Below are positions 3,369 through 36,021 of a stretch of DNA of 41,351 nucleotides, piece by piece. The DNA comes from a virus. Its lineage: Duplodnaviria > Heunggongvirae > Uroviricota > Caudoviricetes. The stretch lies in IMG/VR virus record IMGVR_UViG_2541047933_000011. One strand, given 5' to 3'. Below the pieces are notes generated by a model. It did no database searches. It had not been told where the DNA came from and saw only the letters and a program-made list of their open reading frames with translations. Made by a program: the position numbers and the translations under genes. Position 1 is the stretch's first letter; each line of letters begins with the position of its first letter.

Positions 3369-3395
3369 CCCGCAATATTTTGCGGGCTTTTTTTT
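3369..3395. terminator. stem-loop with flanking A/T runs at 3' end of tail spike gene (possible terminator)
   Basis: CCCGCAA-tatt-TTGCGGG hairpin followed by T9 on plus strand and preceded by A-run on minus strand. Confidence 0.35.
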
Positions 3396-6300
3396 AACGT
3401 TCTTCCAGAGACTGAACCCGCTCTTTTATCTTATCCATTTCTCTGCGCTGCCATGCTGCCTCGATATAGAATAAGAGATCAGGTCTGACCCCCCATCTAG
3501 ATCCTGCTGGCGTTATTTCAACGCGCTCAATGATGTCTTCTATTACCATCACTGGATTATCATCCTCATCAACAATGATGCTCCCGTCATTATCAGTCAG
3601 CGGCATTTCCCTTTGGCCAGTAATGACGTCATCATATACTGCGGGATAATCGTCATAGCAAAGAAAGGCATAGCGGCATGTTGTGCTTTCTTCTTCCATG
3701 AGTCCGTGAGAAATAAGAACATCACGAAGTTGCTGCGCGATTACACCATGATGTATCCTCGCCCCTTCTTCCCCCTTTATAGCGACAGCGTTCAGCCATT
3801 TATAAGCGATATACCTGACGTCACCCCAGGCATCCAGCAATGCTTCGTCAGGAGAGACCGGCTCTGTCTTTAATGTTCCGTCACTGGTAACCACAGGATT
3901 GGAGCCAAGATAAACTGTCGAGAACCTGTTTCCCGGACCACCAAGAGCATTTACATTATCAAGATAAGGTTTAACATCTCCGTTCTCAAAAAGATGTTCG
4001 AGTGCGTTATATACCGCGCGACGTGGAGTACTGCTTCCGGAACCATGCAACGTTATCATTGCACCATCTGCTGAAGACGTTGTTTCACCGCCGCTAACGA
4101 TTAATCTCTGAGCGGTAACATCATCAGACGGTACTTTCTTCGCAATAATGGCGTAATTACCCTCAAGTTTGACTTCCGCGCGAACTTGTCCTGATGTACC
4201 TGCATGGACAGTCAGTGACTGGACGGCAACATCATCTGTGAAATCAACGGGTACAGGAACCGTCCTCACGCCTGACGTCGACATAAAAGTAGGAAGCGTT
4301 CTGTTAGGAGTGGCTCCGTAGACAAAATCCCTTGAAACAAATTCTTCCTGTTTAATTTTCACCCTGAAACAATACAAATCAGCCGGGTGACCATCGTGAA
4401 CATAAGGATATTTTCTGTTGTTATCCCCTATGCTCCATGGGTTTAGAAAGTCTTCCCCACCGAAAATGTAGTACAGCCAGTTGTCTTTGATACAAACTGA
4501 ACCAACACCAACCGCAGAGTTAACTATTCCGCCCTGATAAATCTGATCAGTAACATTAACCCACTCTACATTATCCAGACTCCACTCATTGACGTTAACT
4601 CTGGTCATAAATGTTCTTGGATAATTTCCTGCATAACGGTTATCAGGCTCTCCTCCTTCCCACTCACCAAATGCGCGCTCACTGCCAAAAATAATCAGCT
4701 CATCGCCAACTTTGGCAAAAGGAAGGTTTGAGTGATGAACATTATTTGGGAAGCGAAGAGAATTCCATGATGTACCTAAATCAGAGCTTCTGTGCAATGA
4801 ACTACCGGGTTGAGTACTTAATGTCCCCCTGGTCGTCAGATACAGAATGCCATCATAATATTTTACACATGGCTCAGATGCATTCGCCTCATATTCTGCA
4901 GGTATGCGTCTGCGAACAAAGCTACCAGGAGAACCGAAAGCATCAGAGAAATAGAGTATCCCAAGCTCGCGTGGACCAATATCACCATTATGGTAGCCAA
5001 CAGCAAAACTGTTATCGCTAATCGTCGCAAAACTGTGAATCTCAGTAACAGGAGTGCTTCCGTCAACAAAAGAAGGAATAGTTCCAAGACTGGTTTTTCT
5101 CCATGGTGACGAGTGAAATGATGTACCAAAACTCCAGTATCTACCCTCGTTATTCTGATCCACATCCTGGGTATTTTGCGTCGTAACTGTAAAAGTATTT
5201 TTATCAATAACAGTAGTCACCGTCATATTCCCGGTAACACCTGTAACACCAGAGTTTGAGAAGTTGACAAAATCACCAGCAAATAATCCGTGATCAGTAA
5301 TGCGAATATAAGCGACTTGCTGATTTGCTGCTTTCGTTATACCACCATAAACGCGAAGGCTGCGACTCATTGGGCGATCCCACAACTCTGCAACCTGCAG
5401 TTTATTTCCGCTCACGGTCCGCGTCTCAATTACAGCAAAAAGGCGATTTCTGACAACCCCCATACTCATGCAGTGATAGTTAACTGTGGGATAGTTTTCA
5501 TGTAAATCTGTAAGCCATTCCGGCGTTGTCCAGGTCTTCCCGTCATCTCCTGAGCGAACCCATGCAACATGGAGGTTATTTACACCATGGCGGTCTCCAG
5601 CCATAAAAGGCGCATAGATGACATTGTCATATACAAACGTTTTATCCTGCGTCCAGGCGTTGTACCACGGTGTATCTGTAATTTTAAATAACTCTCCCTG
5701 GATAAAATCTTCAGAAGCATAAAAAAGAGGCTGGCCCGGTATTCTCTCAAATAAAAAACGAGCATTTTTAAATCGACTGACATCCGGAAGAGTTGATACT
5801 TTAAAAGTAAGCCCTAATCCGTCAATTTTATAACCTGGAGATGAGGCTTCAAGGCACGCGCTTATTGCAGTGGAATCGTCATTTATACCATCACCAACAG
5901 CTCCAAAATCTTTGGGGCTAATAGCATCACGCATTTTATCCTGGAACGTTCGGTACACAGCCCCAGAACCATACTGAATAAACCAACCAAAACCACCAAC
6001 AACCCCGGCGATTGCAGCATCGACATAATTACGCATTGAGCGATTATTTACAGCGTCCTGCTCAAATGATGGATCTGCAAGGTTAGAAATTTTGTTTTGC
6101 TTTGCATCGTAATATTTTGCAAGCAAAGATGGTTTCATCAATGCACGTCTGAACCACCCAAAACATTGCTGGATCAGCATCGTCAGGTAGTCAAAGGCAT
6201 CTTCATGCACTTCGGGGAAAAATTTTCCCTGATTGCGAAGGTCTGTCTCCTGCACCACATCAAGCACACGATCTATCGTAATTCGCCATCCAGCAGCAAG

Positions 6301-6513
6301 CGGCGACGGAAGAACAACAGAACCGCCACTATAAGTGCCCGCCCCAGTTACCGTATAACCGGTATCCAGTACTAGTTCTGTTACGTTACCGTTAAGGTCA
6401 GACACCTGAACAACCAGGTCGGATTTTTTGAAAATACGGAAGGTATACGGAAATGATGTCGTAACGCCGTTACCAGTGTATTCGTTGTGGTCAACTTCGG
6501 TTGAGACCGTCAT
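3394..6513 (-). CDS. tail spike: T7 gp17-like N-terminal adaptor, beta-helix/sialidase-like Asp-box region, C-terminal S74-type intramolecular chaperone domain
   Basis: 1039 aa; GGAG RBS; N-terminus YTGNGVTTSFPYTF; DFGAVGDGINDDSTAI pectate-lyase-like motif; Asp-boxes SGDDGKTW and SSDLGTSW; C-terminal GVIAQQL region. Confidence 0.8.
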   Translation of the reverse strand: MTVSTEVDHNEYTGNGVTTSFPYTFRIFKKSDLVVQVSDLNGNVTELVLDTGYTVTGAGTYSGGSVVLPSPLAAGWRITIDRVLDVVQETDLRNQGKFFPEVHEDAFDYLTMLIQQCFGWFRRALMKPSLLAKYYDAKQNKISNLADPSFEQDAVNNRSMRNYVDAAIAGVVGGFGWFIQYGSGAVYRTFQDKMRDAISPKDFGAVGDGINDDSTAISACLEASSPGYKIDGLGLTFKVSTLPDVSRFKNARFLFERIPGQPLFYASEDFIQGELFKITDTPWYNAWTQDKTFVYDNVIYAPFMAGDRHGVNNLHVAWVRSGDDGKTWTTPEWLTDLHENYPTVNYHCMSMGVVRNRLFAVIETRTVSGNKLQVAELWDRPMSRSLRVYGGITKAANQQVAYIRITDHGLFAGDFVNFSNSGVTGVTGNMTVTTVIDKNTFTVTTQNTQDVDQNNEGRYWSFGTSFHSSPWRKTSLGTIPSFVDGSTPVTEIHSFATISDNSFAVGYHNGDIGPRELGILYFSDAFGSPGSFVRRRIPAEYEANASEPCVKYYDGILYLTTRGTLSTQPGSSLHRSSDLGTSWNSLRFPNNVHHSNLPFAKVGDELIIFGSERAFGEWEGGEPDNRYAGNYPRTFMTRVNVNEWSLDNVEWVNVTDQIYQGGIVNSAVGVGSVCIKDNWLYYIFGGEDFLNPWSIGDNNRKYPYVHDGHPADLYCFRVKIKQEEFVSRDFVYGATPNRTLPTFMSTSGVRTVPVPVDFTDDVAVQSLTVHAGTSGQVRAEVKLEGNYAIIAKKVPSDDVTAQRLIVSGGETTSSADGAMITLHGSGSSTPRRAVYNALEHLFENGDVKPYLDNVNALGGPGNRFSTVYLGSNPVVTSDGTLKTEPVSPDEALLDAWGDVRYIAYKWLNAVAIKGEEGARIHHGVIAQQLRDVLISHGLMEEESTTCRYAFLCYDDYPAVYDDVITGQREMPLTDNDGSIIVDEDDNPVMVIEDIIERVEITPAGSRWGVRPDLLFYIEAAWQRREMDKIKERVQSLEER

Positions 6514-6689: not shown

Positions 6690-6708
6690 ATTGCATGGAG
6701 AAGATAAG

Positions 6709-6966
6709 ATGCAGCAGTATCACTATCCACTGGAAGACGGATTTACCGAAAGGATTCACACGCCGGGAGGCGTCAGATCACTGGTGGAGGGATCGCACTT
6801 GATGAAATTACTCCGGGATCTCGATAAGGATGGATTTAATGTCGATGGCCCACTTGCCGAACTGACTGCACTGATTAACTACGTCACCAGCTCACAGATG
6901 TCTATGCAGGATCTGCAAACACATCTCGACTATTGTGCCGAACAATTACGAAAACAAACCACATAA
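6709..6966 (+). CDS. small protein homologous to the C-terminal domain of the Bro-N antirepressor (candidate SOS-inducible antirepressor)
   Basis: 85 aa; GGAG RBS 8 nt before ATG; about 36 percent identity over about 72 aa to the C-terminus of the 8112..8804 product (hand alignment). Confidence 0.6.
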   Translation: MQQYHYPLEDGFTERIHTPGGVRSLVEGSHLMKLLRDLDKDGFNVDGPLAELTALINYVTSSQMSMQDLQTHLDYCAEQLRKQTT

Positions 6967-6971
6967 AGAAA

Positions 6972-6989
6972 AGGCCGCTCTAGCGGCCT
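6972..6989. terminator. bidirectional stem-loop between convergent genes
   Basis: AGGCCGC-tcta-GCGGCCT hairpin overlapping stop of 6988..7716. Confidence 0.45.
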
Positions 6990-7716
6990 ATCGTTTCGCT
7001 TTGTGCTCGTCCCAGCACGTTTTGCACCATGCCATTAAGCCGTCCGCATTTTGATTATTAGGGTAAAAGCTAGTTCGTTTTCTGCGGACATTACAAATTG
7101 GGCACCACTTCATATGGCGTGTATTCTTTGGGCCATCGAGACACCTTGCACACCACTTAGTCAATCCATCTGGATTTTTTGACGATTTCCTGAATTTTTC
7201 ATATGGAAGGTTTATTCTGCATCGCAAGCACTGCTTGCTACCACTTGAAACTCTGTTAGCTGATTCTTCTTTTGGCGGCGATACAGAAGGTATTCTTGCT
7301 GGCTCTGATACTGCCTGAGGTGCTTTTTTAGATGACTGAGACGATATGTCATCACCAGGGAATCTTCCATGATATGCCGGACGCGTTGACACTCCGGGTG
7401 GAAGCTCAGCTGTAAACGGCTTTGGCTGAATCAGTTGCCTCTCTTTTGCTAACTCCTGCTGTTTATAATATGTCTGGATTACCGCGCTATCATAAGCAGG
7501 AGGTACGGAAATATTAGGCGCATTATCTCCCGTTTTTTGAAACTGAGTGGAGGTGTGTTCTATCACCTGTGTACGATTAATCGTTATCTCCCCATCTTCA
7601 GTCTTTATCGTTTTGTTATGATTAACGACCGTACGATCAGAGATCTTAGTCTTGTTCTGGTTGATAACGTAAATAATCACCGCAACCACACCAACAACTA
7701 CCCAGAAAACTTCCAT
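6988..7716 (-). CDS. membrane-anchored protein with C-terminal tandem zinc-ribbon (four CxxC pairs)
   Basis: 242 aa; strong GAGGAAAGG RBS; N-terminal TM helix; C-terminus CLRC...WCARC...WCPIC...WCKTC. Confidence 0.6.
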   Translation of the reverse strand: MEVFWVVVGVVAVIIYVINQNKTKISDRTVVNHNKTIKTEDGEITINRTQVIEHTSTQFQKTGDNAPNISVPPAYDSAVIQTYYKQQELAKERQLIQPKPFTAELPPGVSTRPAYHGRFPGDDISSQSSKKAPQAVSEPARIPSVSPPKEESANRVSSGSKQCLRCRINLPYEKFRKSSKNPDGLTKWCARCLDGPKNTRHMKWCPICNVRRKRTSFYPNNQNADGLMAWCKTCWDEHKAKR

Positions 7717-7735
7717 TGCCTTTCCTCACAATAAC

Positions 7736-7752
7736 ATTACCTTAAAGGTAAT
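7736..7752. promoter_or_regulatory. operator-like palindrome ATTACC-ttaaa-GGTAAT (perfect)
   Basis: exact inverted repeat 20 bp upstream of ATG 7716 (minus strand). Confidence 0.6.
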
Positions 7753-7800
7753 ATCTTGCTTTCAGGTGATCAAGCGTTAAACGCAATCAACCAAATACGG

Positions 7801-7830
7801 TTGATTTTAATATTTCTTCGCGTTTATCAT
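7801..7830 (+). promoter_or_regulatory. candidate sigma70 promoter (TTGATT-18-TATCAT) overlapped by operator
   Basis: -35 at 7801-7806, -10 at 7825-7830; operator 7829..7845 overlaps -10 and start region. Confidence 0.4.
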
Positions 7831-7845
7831 TACCTTTGCGGTAAA
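7829..7845. promoter_or_regulatory. operator-like palindrome ATTACC-tttgc-GGTAAa
   Basis: core TTACC-N5-GGTAA exact. Confidence 0.55.
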
Positions 7846-8111
7846 TTTACATCGCACTCCTCTTGTGCCATAGTAATCGGGCACTGGCAAAATCCAGTGC
7901 CGGGATTGGTCTCCCGGATTACTACAGAGGCACATATGCCGCATAAGCGGTTTTTTTATGTGTAAAGCGCACCTATTCTATGGTGGGCTGTGTGGGGGCA
8001 CCGAAAGGTGCGCCGGGTTCCTTTGTAGCCGGTAAGACCAACTCTGCACAGTTCACCACCATCTGATTGGTCTCAGCGGTGGTGATTAACCTAACTACAA
8101 AGGTGATCGCC
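7846..8111 (+). other. long structured non-coding leader upstream of Bro-N gene (possible attenuator or small RNA)
   Basis: about 265 nt without a credible ORF; hairpins at 7872-7897 and 7996-8011 (GAAA loop); CCGC-ataa-GCGG plus T7 at 7938-7957. Confidence 0.3.
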
Positions 8112-8804
8112 ATGAATACCAAACCTTCCATCTTTTCCTTTGAGTCATCCTGCCAGATCCGTATGTTCATGATTGACGGAGAACCTTGGTTTGTCACCAA
8201 AGATGTGTGCAATGCTTTGAATATTGATGTTACACAAGCGAGAAAACTTGATAAAAAAGGCTGGAACAAAAAGGGGCTGTATTCAATACAGACCCCTGGT
8301 GGAATACAAGAACTATCCATCGTTTCAGAATCAGGTCTCTACATCCTTATTCTGCGTTGCAAAGAGGCAATGACTGAGGGAACGAGAGCATTCAGATTTC
8401 TTGAATGGGTTACAGGTGAGGTTCTTCCTCAGATCCGCCGCACCGGAAGTTACATTAAAAACTCGCTCCCGCAGGAAGAACGCATAAAGATGGTTGCCGA
8501 CCAGGTAGCCAACGCCACAGCATCAGCAGTGATGCAGGCAATGAAGATAGAGAACAAAACCTACAGTGCCCCACTGAAGCCCGGCTACCGCAGCCTGATT
8601 CATTCTCCGTCTGGTGTTCTCGGCCTGACGGAGAACTCATTGCTTATGAATCTGCTAAACCAGTTACAGGAAGACGGGCACGACGTATCGGGCGCGGCGG
8701 CGGAGCTGACCACCATGTTCTGCTACATCGTCGGTGTGAGCAAATGCCTGCGTGATATCCAGACCCACGCGGAGTACATCAACGACAAGGCAGGGTTCTT
8801 CTGA
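8112..8804 (+). CDS. Bro-N domain antirepressor-like protein
   Basis: ATG 8112 with AGGTGA RBS; N-terminal FMIDGEPWFVTKDVCNALNI Bro-N motif; C-terminal domain paralogous to 6709..6966. Confidence 0.75.
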   Translation: MNTKPSIFSFESSCQIRMFMIDGEPWFVTKDVCNALNIDVTQARKLDKKGWNKKGLYSIQTPGGIQELSIVSESGLYILILRCKEAMTEGTRAFRFLEWVTGEVLPQIRRTGSYIKNSLPQEERIKMVADQVANATASAVMQAMKIENKTYSAPLKPGYRSLIHSPSGVLGLTENSLLMNLLNQLQEDGHDVSGAAAELTTMFCYIVGVSKCLRDIQTHAEYINDKAGFF

Positions 8805-8875
8805 CGGGCGGTGGCACAGGGACGTGCCTTTAAATAATTCTGTACAGATTGCAGACTGGGGGTGAATAGAGTACT

Positions 8876-8892
8876 ATTACCCCAAAGGTAAA
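8876..8892. promoter_or_regulatory. operator-like palindrome ATTACC-ccaaa-GGTAAa
   Basis: core exact; 26 bp upstream of ATG 8918. Confidence 0.55.
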
Positions 8893-8917
8893 CCGAGAGT
8901 TTACATGAGGGGGAAAC

Positions 8918-13971: not shown

Positions 13972-16718
13972 TATTTGCCCCCTGCGTATATATTGCTCGG
14001 AAGGTAATTGGCTGAACCATAACCGAATGGTTTGGTCAGATCTGGAGGAGTATATCCATCTTTATTGCTGAACTGCGGCAGCGGATTGCCTTCTCTCCGC
14101 ACTCTAGCCTCATCAACACGCTGTTGCTGGAACTGAATGGTTTGCCTGTACATTGGAGATGTCAGCTGATCCGGCTTGAAACGAACAGGGAGACCATTTT
14201 CTCCAATATAATTTCTCGGTTCTATCGCTCCGTTTGCGTCAGGCTGTAAAACCATAACAGCATAACTCCTATCCCTTGCCGTAAGGCCATCAGAAACAAG
14301 TATTAAGTCCGTATCACTGCGAGGACCGCCAAAGGATTTTGATTTAAGCTCGCGTTTTTCCTGCTCCCACTGCCCCTGTATCCAGTTACCAGCACCATTA
14401 TTTACTCCGTACAATGCCTCAGGTGCATACTTCATAACCTCTGCTTTGCCATTAACCGTAGAAACTCCCCAGGTGGTTCTGATCATGGCATTGGTCATTT
14501 TCTCAGCCTGTTCTGCATCGCCACCTGTCTGTACAAAGTTAGCATCGTAAATTGTCTGGTAATCTCGCTGATAGGCCGCATTTGATTTTCCTGGATCGGT
14601 AATATCCGGAGACCACGAACCAAAGGAAGTCAGACTGCTGGCGTTATTTTGTGCAGCAGTTACCCTCGCCGCGACATATTTTTTGTCTCGCATGGCAGTG
14701 GAAAGCATCTGTTTCATTCGGTCATCCTGTTGGAACACCTGACTGTAAGCCATATCAACAGCCTTATCCTCCGGCACGCCAGCGCGGGAATAATCGTAAA
14801 CCTTGCCATAAAATGCCATCGTACTTTTATCAAGTGTTGCCGCTGCCGCCGGATTATTATCGAATAACTGACCGTAGAATTTTGCCATCGGGACAACCAG
14901 CGCAGGATCTCTTGATGTTGCTCCACTGTTAAGCATTGTTTTAACCTGAGTTGGTATCATGCCGCTTTTAGTTGTGACGGTGACCAGTGTATTGATGCTC
15001 TGCGGATCAGATATGGAAAACGAAGGCGCGATATCCTGCGCGAAATAACGGTCTACCGCTGCCTGATTGTTTTTGTCGTTCGGGTCCAGCGGGAAGTTAT
15101 TTTGCATTGAAGACACGAACCTGTTTCTTCCCTGCTGAATCTCCCACTCCCTATCCATCTCTTTAAATTTGGCCTGCATTTTCTCCCAGCGTTGCTGGTT
15201 AGCAGCAAATCCAGGAGCATTTGGATCCTGTGGACGTAAACGTTCAAGAATGTCTTGTCGTCCTTCTGGAGTGAGGTCTTTAGCGGCACCAATGACACCT
15301 CCATATTGTATCTGCGCCTGCATATCCTTCCACTTCATAGCGCCAATGCGCGGACCATTGGCCCGGATAAAATCGTCCTCAGAAGGTAACTTCTCAGGTT
15401 TCAATCCTTCATCAAGGGCTGAATATGCATCTTTAACTACGGTGCTAAGCTGGTCCGCATACTGCTGGCGGTACTGATTTCTCAGCTCATTAGCCTGCCT
15501 CAATGCCTGTATTTGCATTTGAGGGCTCATAGCATCAAATGCCGCATTGCCCGTATAACGCTTAGGTGAATCAAGGTTAGTTAGACCAAGGGCTGCCGAG
15601 ATACCAGTTTCAAGCTGTTCGGTGCTATAAGGCATACTGCCATTTTCGTGTTTAATAATCCCAGCACATAAAGCAGCTAGTGTCTTTGGGTTAGAGATAT
15701 CAAGCTGATCATTCTCCCCAACACCAAGCTCACCACACAATGCCCTAATATAAGCATCAGTATTATTACCATCACTAGCCGGAGCATAGCGATTAACAAT
15801 CTCGCTAACGGTGTCATAGCCTTGACGCTGGTAAGACAACATATTTTTACCCAACGCGCGGATTCCATGCTCAGGGGTAGCAAACGTTGCAAAACGTCCA
15901 TCGCTACCGATCTGACCTTCCCACGGGTTAGATTTGCTCGCTTCAATATTACCAGGGTTATTATTACGTAAACCACGAGCATCCAATGAATTACCATGTG
16001 ATATTGCACGACTCACACCATCAAGATCCCCTGGCTCTCCATTAACCTGAAGAAACTCGTTGTATTTTTGAGCGATATTTCCTATCCATGCTTGCTGCCC
16101 CATTTGTTCCTTGAGCTGAGTTTTCTGCTGAACACGCCACTCATCAGGAAGCCCATGCGCATCAGCGTATTGATCAATAGATTCAAATCGCTGCTTGGCT
16201 AAATCGACAAATGCTTGGTTATCGCTATATAGCCCCGCAGACTGAGTGACAGCCAATGCATTTCCTGACAAATACGTTTGATCTTGGAATTGCTGAAACT
16301 GCCCAACTTCATATCGACGTGCCTGATTGTAATAAGACTGCATAGACTGCTGGAGTTGAAAGGATAATTTATTCCTTTCCTCACTTTCAGGGATTGAGCC
16401 TAATAATGCCTGAGCCCTTTCCTGCATATTTTTCATAACAGCGTCACTCTGACCAAGAGCGTTTTTACCCTGTTTAGAAATCAGCCCATTTTCAGGGTTG
16501 TTAATCTGGTCATCTGCAAATTGGTTAAATTGCAGTAACGCCTCCTGGGCCATAGCAACATTCGCTTTCTGCCTGGCTTCACCATATGCCACCGCATACT
16601 GATCTGCGACATTCGCCAGCACCTGACCTGCTTGAGGAACATCGAAGGTCTGAAAACCACCGGTTTGCACACCACGACTTTGCACCTGGCGTCCGGATGT
16701 AGTAGGAACAACAGGCAT
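13971..16718 (-). CDS. large virion protein
   Basis: 915 aa; AGGAGG RBS; contains RNNNPGNIE...W.G motif of uncertain assignment. Confidence 0.7.
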   Translation of the reverse strand: MPVVPTTSGRQVQSRGVQTGGFQTFDVPQAGQVLANVADQYAVAYGEARQKANVAMAQEALLQFNQFADDQINNPENGLISKQGKNALGQSDAVMKNMQERAQALLGSIPESEERNKLSFQLQQSMQSYYNQARRYEVGQFQQFQDQTYLSGNALAVTQSAGLYSDNQAFVDLAKQRFESIDQYADAHGLPDEWRVQQKTQLKEQMGQQAWIGNIAQKYNEFLQVNGEPGDLDGVSRAISHGNSLDARGLRNNNPGNIEASKSNPWEGQIGSDGRFATFATPEHGIRALGKNMLSYQRQGYDTVSEIVNRYAPASDGNNTDAYIRALCGELGVGENDQLDISNPKTLAALCAGIIKHENGSMPYSTEQLETGISAALGLTNLDSPKRYTGNAAFDAMSPQMQIQALRQANELRNQYRQQYADQLSTVVKDAYSALDEGLKPEKLPSEDDFIRANGPRIGAMKWKDMQAQIQYGGVIGAAKDLTPEGRQDILERLRPQDPNAPGFAANQQRWEKMQAKFKEMDREWEIQQGRNRFVSSMQNNFPLDPNDKNNQAAVDRYFAQDIAPSFSISDPQSINTLVTVTTKSGMIPTQVKTMLNSGATSRDPALVVPMAKFYGQLFDNNPAAAATLDKSTMAFYGKVYDYSRAGVPEDKAVDMAYSQVFQQDDRMKQMLSTAMRDKKYVAARVTAAQNNASSLTSFGSWSPDITDPGKSNAAYQRDYQTIYDANFVQTGGDAEQAEKMTNAMIRTTWGVSTVNGKAEVMKYAPEALYGVNNGAGNWIQGQWEQEKRELKSKSFGGPRSDTDLILVSDGLTARDRSYAVMVLQPDANGAIEPRNYIGENGLPVRFKPDQLTSPMYRQTIQFQQQRVDEARVRREGNPLPQFSNKDGYTPPDLTKPFGYGSANYLPSNIYAGGK

Positions 16719-26352: not shown

Positions 26353-26429
26353 GTGGCATTAGCTCAGTTGGACAGAGCAACCGCCTTCTAAGCGGTTGGT
26401 CGCAGGTTCGAATCCTGCATGCCACGCCA
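26353..26429 (+). tRNA. tRNA-Arg (anticodon UCU), phage-encoded
   Basis: 77 nt; acceptor stem GTGGCAT/ATGCCAC; D-arm GCTCAGTTGGACAGAGC; anticodon stem ACCGC/GCGGT with loop CTTCTAA; T-arm GCAGGTTCGAATCCTGC; 3' GCCA. Confidence 0.85.
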
Positions 26430-35436: not shown

Positions 35437-36021
35437 ATGAAAAGTATCCAGGACGTCCGCAGGCAAAATCTCAACGACTTGATCGACCGTGAATTCAATG
35501 GTGTTCAGACGCGGATGGCAGAAAAACTTGGAACTCAGGCAAATCTGGTAAACCGCTGGGCTCTTGGCAAGAAGGTTATCGGCGACCAGGTTGCACGAAA
35601 AATTGAAGCTGCCGCCAATAAACCCCGTAACTGGCTTGATATTGATCGTTCGCTTTCTCAGGAGGGTTTTCAGCCTGTCGGCCCGAGCGATATAGGTCAG
35701 CTGGCGGCTCACAACCTGGAACGCTGGATGAGCGAAAGCCGCGACCTTTCAACACAGGGAAAACTTCACCGCGCATCCGGCGTCGCCCAGGTGACAATCA
35801 GCCGCCTGTTAAACAATGAGGTCAGCGTTTCCATTTCCACTCTGGAGAATGTTGCATCCGCATTCGGGCGTCACGGATATGAACTACTGATTCACCCGCA
35901 CGACCCTGCGACTATCAACTATGACCGCTCACGCTACGCATTGTTACCCGAAACCGAGAAAGCAAAGATCGAAAGTTACATTGAATTTGTCATCAACCAG
36001 AACGAAAAAAGCAAACAATAA
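35437..36021 (+). CDS. prophage repressor candidate with two XRE-type HTH domains and no peptidase domain
   Basis: 194 aa; HTH-1 QTRMAEKLGTQANLVNRW, HTH-2 SGVAQVTISRLLNNEVS; no S24 Ala-Gly/Ser-Lys region; no strong SD. Confidence 0.6.
   Translation: MKSIQDVRRQNLNDLIDREFNGVQTRMAEKLGTQANLVNRWALGKKVIGDQVARKIEAAANKPRNWLDIDRSLSQEGFQPVGPSDIGQLAAHNLERWMSESRDLSTQGKLHRASGVAQVTISRLLNNEVSVSISTLENVASAFGRHGYELLIHPHDPATINYDRSRYALLPETEKAKIESYIEFVINQNEKSKQ

Follow-up and report, generated by a model that had tools for sequence, protein, structure and literature searches.

An IsrK–C4 RNA leader of the P1 immI type probably controls a Bro-N antirepressor-type gene in an epsilon15/phiV10-like prophage of Escherichia coli

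Locus and Target Gene

The stretch of DNA analyzed here (IMG/VR virus record IMGVR_UViG_2541047933_000011; 41,351 nucleotides, hereafter the window) comes from E. coli and represents the genome of a temperate podovirus of Uetakevirus-like (epsilon15/phiV10) type, the host phage being a K1-specific epsilon15/phiV10-like prophage. Its first 25 kb were 97.7% identical to Escherichia phage EC.W1-9 across 75% of the length, and TL-2011b and phiV10 were also close to this part. An endosialidase tailspike gene lies near the locus under study, in which an RNA leader is flanked by two genes:

6988 to 7716, leftward: gene of 242 aa, on the upstream side of the leader
8112 to 8804, plus strand: antirepressor-type Bro-N gene of 230 aa, rightward and downstream of the leader, with its ATG at 8112

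The Bro-N domain (PF02498) was detected in the 230-aa protein at residues 16–106 with a Pfam score of 51.4 bits against a cut-off of 25.6, and homologues in phages TL-2011b, Tyrion, and phiV10 are annotated as anti-repressor or anti-immunity proteins. Judged from such annotation, the protein would act by inactivating the prophage repressor. A megablast search with the module and the Bro-N gene (7700–8900) gave matches in 484 of 5426 complete E. coli genomes, and the IsrK and C4 RNAs described below are unannotated in RefSeq.

When 7838–8125 was folded as RNA, the minimum free energy (MFE) was −116 kcal/mol, as compared with −87.3 ± 4.8 kcal/mol for dinucleotide shuffles (z = −5.95), none of the 200 shuffles being as good. 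On the plus strand, the open reading frames (ORFs) within the leader span 25–69 aa and none is conserved; no plus-strand ORF of more than 69 aa was found over the leader. These results agreed with a previous reading of this DNA made without database searches (the sequence-only reading), which had seen no credible ORF ahead of the Bro-N ATG. As to tRNA or tmRNA, this identity of the leader was rejected, as ARAGORN gave no prediction there; its sole prediction was a tRNA-Arg at 26353.

IsrK and C4 in the Leader

When the whole window was scanned against Rfam at gathering thresholds, three matches were obtained, two of which fill the leader on the plus strand. The corresponding RNAs and their structural elements are as follows:

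7881 to 7957, plus strand: IsrK small RNA, RF01394 (74.7 bits against a gathering threshold of 50; full model, 1–77)
7880 to 7901: first hairpin of the leader, GGCACTGG/CCAGTGCC
7938 to 7957, plus strand: IsrK terminator, a GCCGC-ATAA-GCGG(T) stem-loop followed by T7 (found in the terminator scan; 3' hairpin of the isrK model)
7931 to 7936 and 7957 to 7962, plus strand: outer inverted repeat CACATA/TATGTG around the terminator
7976 to 8063, plus strand: C4 antisense RNA, RF01695 (78.6 bits against a gathering threshold of 45; full-length model, 1–87)
7998 to 8011: GAAA-loop hairpin GCACC-GAAA-GGTGC, the first inner hairpin of C4

The IsrK match comprises hairpin 1 (7881–7900), hairpin 2 (7901–7916), a single-stranded linker, and a Rho-independent terminator, and its MFE fold is the Rfam consensus. 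The T-run of the terminator is invariant or nearly so across 70 modules. The 3' arm of the surrounding CACATA/TATGTG repeat is present only in read-through RNA, and this repeat was 85–90% paired in relatives, with compensatory changes in 2 of its 6 pairs. In a permissive Rfam scan, the c4-a1b1 model (RF03163) also matched 7868–7920 at 39.9 bits, below its gathering threshold of 46.7, a stretch covered by the stronger isrK match. Binding to Hfq and accumulation as an RNA of ~77 nt are known only for the Salmonella IsrK (PMC4825925).

The C4 match adopts a long outer stem around two hairpins; its MFE fold (−43.1 kcal/mol; z = −4.3) is identical to the consensus. C4 has a tRNA-like acceptor stem that carries ACCA on its 3' side (8058–8061), and by homology to P1 c4, whose ends are mapped in the record annotation, mature C4 would extend over ~7982–8060 with a 3' ACC tail; both the acceptor stem and this homology would fit a release of C4 from a longer precursor by RNase P.

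The hairpins singled out in the sequence-only reading were all recovered. The short hairpin with its T7 run was placed exactly at 7938–7957, nested in the CACATA/TATGTG repeat and terminator-like in the scan, and the GAAA-loop hairpin is likewise present; the first hairpin does exist, and it lies at 7880–7901 instead of 7872–7897. From the spans of the two Rfam matches, the first two hairpins and the terminator belong to IsrK and the GAAA hairpin to C4. The proposal that the stretch is an attenuator or a small regulatory RNA thus stood as regards the small RNAs and the terminator, while a single attenuator did not, the hairpins being split over two RNAs.

Promoters and Operator-Like Repeats

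Upstream of IsrK, the following elements were found:

7785 to 7806: inverted repeat AATCAACC-N6-GGTTGATT, overlapping the −35 element of the upstream promoter-like site and listed among the terminator-like scan matches
7801 to 7806 and 7825 to 7830, plus strand: upstream promoter-like TTGATT-18-TATCAT (9/12 consensus match in the scan)
7830 to 7844: operator-like palindrome TTACCTTTGCGGTAA, set between the two promoters (upstream −10 and isrK −35) and abutting the latter
7846 to 7851 and 7869 to 7874, plus strand: isrK promoter TTTACA-17-CATAGT with a TG-extended −10 (scan match; position conserved)

Promoter-like matches are not enriched in the region (7 found against 5.3 expected). The predicted start of the isrK promoter, ~7880/7881, is position 1 of the isrK model, and its position is conserved in most of ~107 related loci, diverged ones included, in which −35 hexamers of the TTGACA, TTTACA, or TTGCC type and TAnnnT-like −10 hexamers occur at the same position relative to isrK. 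The upstream element, 44 nt away, was the promoter chosen in the earlier reading; it is indeed present and conserved in position, with TTGAnn and TATnAT-like hexamers recurring in many of 55 relatives, whereas the best-conserved start is the one ~44 nt further downstream. By analogy with P2c4 (P51a) of P1, the upstream element may be a second, tandem promoter.

The AACC-N6-GGTT core of the repeat at 7785–7806 recurs without change of position in 55 related loci, and the repeat is a candidate protein-binding site. The pattern TTACC-N5-GGTAA, allowing up to one mismatch, occurs in 15 copies in the window as compared with 0.67 expected, and copies flank a gene for a helix-turn-helix (HTH) repressor-like protein at 35437–36021; the palindrome is also conserved beside the −35 element in most enterobacterial modules. 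The 15 sites and the copies flanking the HTH gene therefore suggest that the cassette is probably also under the control of the prophage repressor via TTACCTTTGCGGTAA.

Pairing Sites a and b

Two sites in C4, a' and b', are complementary to sites on either side of it, in IsrK (a1 and b1) and in the leader of the Bro-N mRNA (a2 and b2):

7906 to 7912, plus strand: a1, TTGGTCT, in the loop of IsrK hairpin 2 (7/7 Watson–Crick to a')
7922 to 7930, plus strand: b1, CTACAGAGG, in the IsrK linker (8 Watson–Crick pairs and 1 G-U to b')
8020 to 8028, plus strand: b', CCTTTGTAG, in the 12-nt loop of C4 hairpin 2 (9/9 to b2; 8 plus the G-U to b1)
8035 to 8041, plus strand: a', AGACCAA, in the single-stranded linker of C4 (7/7 to both a1 and a2)
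8067 to 8073, plus strand: a2, TTGGTCT, 4 nt past the C4 span (7/7 to a'), flanked by a small co-varying CTGA/TCAG stem
8078 to 8085, plus strand: nearly invariant GGTGGTGA, with two alternative partners, the C4 3' strand (8053–8060) or the Shine–Dalgarno (SD)/AUG region (8104–8113)
8095 to 8103, plus strand: b2, CTACAAAGG (9/9 to b'), overlapping the Bro-N SD
8100 to 8105, plus strand: Bro-N SD, AAGGTG, 6 nt upstream of the ATG

The Bro-N ATG follows 9 nt after b2. Duplex energies were approximately −12 kcal/mol for the b sites (−12.4 kcal/mol for b1–b') and −9 kcal/mol for the a sites. In shuffled leaders, a b2 match of at least 9 nt was reached with p = 0.0004 and a 7-nt a2 match with p = 0.005, and both together in none of 20,000. 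When the RNAs were folded separately, a1 and b' fell in hairpin loops and b1 and a' in linkers; these predicted folds present each pairing site appropriately. Apart from a1/b1 and a2/b2, no good composite a + b site was found as a further C4 target in the window. Two partial C4-target matches were noted at 14491 (plus strand) and ~11561 (minus strand).

The MFE fold further predicted a leader hairpin that hides the SD and AUG by itself, with b2 partly in its apical loop. The helix of GGTGGTGA with the C4 3' strand was 96% paired with compensatory changes in 4 of 8 pairs. That with the start region was 92% paired and lacked significant covariation: of 500 shuffles, 20 reached its paired fraction and 206 its count of compensatory pairs. 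For this reason, a conserved SD/AUG-masking hairpin formed by GGTGGTGA was not accepted as such, and the role of the segment 8078–8085 is one that we infer only.

Comparative Survey and Covariation

When viral contigs were searched with a pattern of the two IsrK hairpins in which the a1 loop was unconstrained, 120 loci were retrieved. Among 125 isrK-pattern matches (viral contigs and annotated phage loci, window excluded), 99 had a C4 homologue at a fixed distance of ~90 nt downstream. The 55 distinct module variants carry 29 b' loops and 16 a' linkers, and in all 55, a' has a 7-nt (once 8-nt) Watson–Crick match to its own a1 and a2. Matches within a module were longer on average than those between modules, namely 8.2 against 5.0 nt for b'–b2, 7.0 against 5.1 nt for a'–a2, and 7.1 against 4.2 nt for b'–b1.

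Covariation was evaluated on a MAFFT alignment of 70 sequences, P1 included. Among the helices, IsrK hairpin 1 was 100% paired in 69 sequences (compensatory changes in 5/7 pairs), the C4 outer stem 99.9% paired (9/17), and C4 hairpin 1 94.6% paired (5/5). Among the interactions between sites, a1–a' was 98.9% paired across 69 sequences (6/7), and the paired cells amounted to 83% for a'–a2 (5/7), 82% for b'–b2 (8/9), and 81% for b1–b' (9/9), the lower percentages of a2 and the b sites being largely attributable to MAFFT register shifts in gapped regions. All these values were far above slid controls, and in 500 shuffles the observed value was unreached on nearly every measure (at most 1/500, on one measure). 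The three-way covariation of the a sites and of the b sites supports real RNA–RNA pairing with locus-specific codes. The conservation of a structured leader that the sequence-only reading had proposed to examine by folding and covariation was thereby borne out, with compensatory changes in the 70 modules.

An ATG ~50 nt after C4 was invariant in all 70 modules. The gene that it opens most often encodes a Bro-N protein of ~230 aa; alternatives are Rha, ORF6N, AntA, and Derepression-family genes and a 62–77-aa Icd-like ORF as in P1. Icd-type modules have an extra insert of ~40 nt with TATAAT immediately before C4.

Alternative Explanations

The leader could in principle be a plain attenuator, in which the hairpin and T7 run limit transcription into Bro-N while the other hairpins act in cis and no RNA acts in trans. 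Such a device would fit the strong terminator-like site within the leader, the MFE fold of the full-length leader, in which a1/b1 are paired with a'/b' in cis, and the alternative cis structures also described for Gifsy-1 (PMC4825925). However, the stretch past the terminator is a full-length member of the C4 family, whose homologues in P1 and Salmonella are processed and stable (PMC7067206; PMC4825925), and a terminator alone explains neither the covariation of a1/a'/a2 and b1/b'/b2 nor the location of b2 on the SD; we consider the plain attenuator unlikely. Still less probable is regulation through a leader peptide or upstream ORF, as proposed for orf45 of Gifsy-1, in which translation from the conserved AUG in the C4 5' strand would be coupled to that of the antirepressor. 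In Gifsy-1, this ORF, of exactly 45 codons, ends in a TGA that shares bases with the anrP ATG (ATGA), and stop-codon mutants of orf45 showed reduced activation (PMC4825925). The window does have an ORF from the same AUG (7980–8066; 28 aa), but it lacks an SD and, with its stop codon ending 45 nt short of the Bro-N ATG at 8112, is uncoupled from that gene. In 69 modules, moreover, the length of this ORF ranged from 3 to >45 codons and every one of the three possible frames with respect to the downstream ATG was represented, while conservation at the nucleotide level takes the form of helices with compensatory changes. A coding explanation of the leader was accordingly rejected, given this variation in length and frame and the short, unconserved plus-strand ORFs.

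The sequence-only reading had also drawn a parallel with P22 sar. In a sar-like system, a small antisense RNA from the opposite strand would pair with the Bro-N mRNA. An antirepressor gene near a tailspike gene is indeed an analogous context, and one minus-strand promoter-like match lies inside the Bro-N gene (8197–8169). This match is at the chance level (7 against 5.3 expected) and no minus-strand terminator follows it; neither a conserved minus-strand promoter nor a conserved terminator was found, and the Rfam matches are on the plus strand only. The conserved helices contain numerous G-U pairs, such as a C4 outer-stem pair that is G-U in 60 of 69 sequences; on the other strand these would become A-C mismatches, indicating that the helices work on the plus strand only. 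As both RNAs are sense-strand products, the parallel was wrong in mechanism, and we regard a sar-like RNA as hardly credible here.

Proposed Mechanism

The leader belongs to the isrK and C4 families by sequence and fold, has the layout of the P1 immI region, and carries complementarities that covary across loci, and we consider it highly likely that it constitutes an antirepressor control cassette of the P1 immI type, composed of IsrK and C4. For this prophage, the processing of C4, its block of translation, and the sense in which IsrK acts are put forward by analogy with the characterized systems. Transcription would start at the promoter adjoining the repressor-operator-like palindrome, and most transcripts would end at the hairpin and T7 run to give a 77-nt IsrK with a1 and b1. 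The read-through RNA would contain C4 (~7982–8060), which would be excised as in P1, at its 5' end by RNase P, and accumulate in the lysogen. C4 would bind the mRNA leader at a2 and b2 through its linker a' and loop b'. Since b2 overlaps the Bro-N SD, C4 on b2 is proposed to keep ribosomes off, so that no antirepressor would be made and the prophage would stay repressed. Because IsrK bears both target sequences, it could lift the block by competing for C4, whether free or as a domain of the long transcript; genetic evidence for such relief exists for the Gifsy-1 IsrK (PMC4825925). Part of the repression may need no C4, as the SD and AUG are hidden in the predicted fold of the leader by itself. 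The simple picture of IsrK as a sponge may also be incomplete, given that in Gifsy-1 the toxicity of IsrK was stronger, not weaker, when the downstream RNA was co-expressed (PMC4825925).

A cassette of this type would explain how an unannotated gap of 230 nt controls an antirepressor and hence prophage induction. The three-way covariation points to a portable, address-coded RNA module placed before many antirepressor families, and modules so coded would bear on cross-talk among co-resident prophages. Going further, we regard it as possible, rather than probable, that IsrK, C4, and the leader of the mRNA work together as a single three-RNA switch that uses a combinatorial address code, the sample comprising at least 9 a-core types and 29 b' loop variants matched three ways within each locus. 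IsrK would then be a dedicated anti-C4 decoy, and the invariant GGUGGUGA would toggle, pairing alternately with the 3' strand of C4 and with the start codon; if this is true, co-resident prophages with different codes would be insulated from each other, and those with the same code would cross-induce or cross-immunize. To our knowledge, isrK and C4 are still treated as separate entities in the literature and in Rfam, where isrK lies outside the C4 clan, and a unified, code-based view across the Bro-N, Rha, ORF6N, AntA, and Icd cassettes would thus be a modest advance.

Comparison With Known Systems

The cassette type has already been described, and the kind of mechanism is not new. The P22 sar system resembles the window in that a small RNA limits antirepressor synthesis, as proposed here, in a temperate podovirus and near the tailspike gene. 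The sar RNA is an opposite-strand transcript fully complementary to the arc-ant junction, whereas the RNAs of the window are sense-strand leader products with short a and b sites, and mnt and arc genes are absent, unlike in P22. No sar-type Rfam match was obtained in the window in either the gathering-threshold or the permissive scan.

We know of no place other than Gifsy-1 of Salmonella where IsrK has been studied. The Gifsy-1 locus presents isrK (79.3 bits), C4 (69 bits), and an antirepressor-type gene in this order, and shares with the window the short terminated IsrK, the read-through mRNA, and the a1/b1, a'/b', and a2/b2 complementarities. Its a and b codes, ACGCCAA and CGGTGAT, differ from those of the window, as does the target gene, which is of the ORF6N type instead of Bro-N; the counterpart of orf45 in the window has 28 codons, no SD, and no coupling. 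IsrK supplied in trans raised anrP translation more than 100-fold and was required for Gifsy-1 induction (Hershko-Shalev et al., 2016, PMC4825925), and IsrK and the downstream stable RNA STnc1160 were abundant in lysogens under all tested conditions (PMC7067206).

The CI RNA of P4 is, like C4, a processed tRNA-like antisense RNA cut from a leader with complementary sites on both sides (seqA and seqC), and the Gifsy-1 authors called IsrK a structural homologue of seqA (PMC4825925). It ends the transcription of replication genes prematurely (PMC4825925), an action other than the masking of an antirepressor SD proposed here. The APSE phages of Hamiltonella have isrK, c4, and a BRO gene as in the window (Rouil et al., 2020, PMC7313666; LR794147), and their a' and b' match the region directly upstream of the adjacent BRO gene (PMC7313666); APSE-7 records annotate isrK, C4, a', b', and this gene. 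The two share ~70% nucleotide identity, differ in host and phage type, and are both known from sequence alone.

The closest correspondence in layout was with P1, where, as in P7, c4 represses ant (PMC8546580; PMC7313666). The P1 record gives the order C1 operator Oc4, P2c4, P1c4, a1, b1, c4, a2, b2, icd, ant1; up to b2 and the start codon that follows it, the order in the window is the same. The spacing agrees within a few nt, except for the gap from b1 to c4 (~50 nt against 66 nt in P1): a2 begins 4 nt after C4 in both, a2 and b2 are separated by 22 and 21 nt in the window and P1, respectively, and the two P1 promoters, 40 nt apart, occupy the same place as the possible tandem pair of the window. 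A few bases of a' and b' are reported by Citron and Schuster (1990) to set specificity and to be the basis of P1/P7 heteroimmunity. The C4 fold is common to both (68.8 bits in P1 against 78.6 in the window), whereas the flanking RNA scores differently: the c4-a1b1 model passes in P1 (51.0 bits) and Gifsy-1 (48.1 bits) as compared with 39.9 bits in the window, and the isrK model, at 74.7 bits in the window, gives a sub-threshold 35.1 bits in P1, the terminator-like hairpin included. The two also differ in the operator sequence and presumably in the repressor, and P1 is a P1-like plasmid prophage and the window an epsilon15-like podovirus. P1 has the icd ORF, the translation of which is required for ant expression, between b2 and the antirepressor gene, while the window has none; as b2 of the window lies directly on the Bro-N SD, a polarity step through icd is not needed. 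With neither an icd ORF nor a coupled upstream ORF, Rho polarity via icd and the coupling of orf45 are not transferable to the window. In both the P1/P7 immI region and the window, b2 is located where ribosomes bind for the first gene downstream, and the final target is of the antirepressor type.

The segment between a2 and b2

Between a2 and b2, the mRNA-leader complements of the C4 pairing sites, lies a nearly invariant segment:

8078-8085, GGTGGTGA

This segment can pair with the outer stem of C4 on its 3' strand (8053-8060; 96% paired), the pairing being compensatory at 4 of the 8 pairs. It has an alternative possible partner in the SD/AUG region (8104-8113; 92% paired), for which a test of covariation gave nothing significant. 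The segment may act as a switch that toggles between the precursor and processed states.

Modules in related loci

The published 'orf45' of Salmonella Gifsy-1 (L125, 34075-34214, minus strand) was revealed to be an ORF reading of a C4-family RNA together with the a2/b2 leader. From the conserved AUG within the C4 5' strand this ORF runs for 45 codons, and its TGA overlaps the ATG of anrP. The Gifsy-1 paper compares this region to P4 CI and does not use the name C4 for it (PMC4825925).

In the module alignment A1 (columns about 119-156), an extra insert of ~40 nt with a TATAAT box was seen directly 5' of C4 in seven modules (L039, L048, L050, L052, L066, L090, and L031), whose first downstream gene is an Icd-like ORF of 62-65 aa. 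The insert suggests that C4 in these modules would have its own promoter, bypassing the IsrK terminator. Exceptions were the Icd-like modules L106, without the insert, and L034 (cut ORF), with a shorter insert lacking the TATAAT box. Furthermore, single viral contigs with two isrK-C4 modules were identified (L051, L061, L100, L101, and L104); in at least L104 the a/b pairing sequences differ between the two, which fits orthogonal addressing within a single genome.

Genes and operator-like sites around the cassette

Features of the window
3394-6513, minus strand, endosialidase tailspike (Pfam End_beta_propel, 775 bits; End_tail_spike; Peptidase_S74 chaperone)
6691-6966, plus strand, free-standing 91-aa ORF, 1.1 kb upstream of the Bro-N gene (8112-8804, plus strand)
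6988-7716, minus strand, divergent 242-aa gene; product with hydrophobic N-terminus and Cys-rich C-terminus
7785-7806, inverted repeat AATCAACC-N6-GGTTGATT, at the upstream promoter-like site, over its -35
26353-26429, plus strand, prophage-encoded tRNA-Arg (anticodon TCT)
TTACC-N5-GGTAA sites (15 bp): 6386, 6618, 7737, 7830, 8877, 26016, 29161, 29179, 32981, 33043, 34982, 35319, 35367, 36078, 36140

The tailspike has an epsilon15-type N-terminus, and its endosialidase assignment indicates that the phage targets K1-capsulated E. coli; an O2:K1:H7 APEC strain was among the closest chromosomal copies. The 242-aa product gave a weak Stc1-like zinc-finger match (21 bits, under the cut-off), and the region upstream of its gene contains the operator-like site 7737. 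Since an AACC-N6-GGTT core is kept at the position of the 7785-7806 repeat in 55 related loci, this repeat may serve the divergent control region as a second site of protein binding.

The 15 TTACC-N5-GGTAA sites (≤1 mismatch), against 0.67 expected, include pairs bracketing a two-HTH repressor-like gene (35437-36021), and they are probably operators of the prophage repressor, dispersed as a set in a manner that recalls the scattered C1 operators in P1. The 91-aa product shares 42% identity (74 residues, E = 9e-16) with the Bro-N protein's C-terminal part and is a paralogue that has the C-terminal domain alone; the two proteins loosely recall Ant1/Ant2 of P1.
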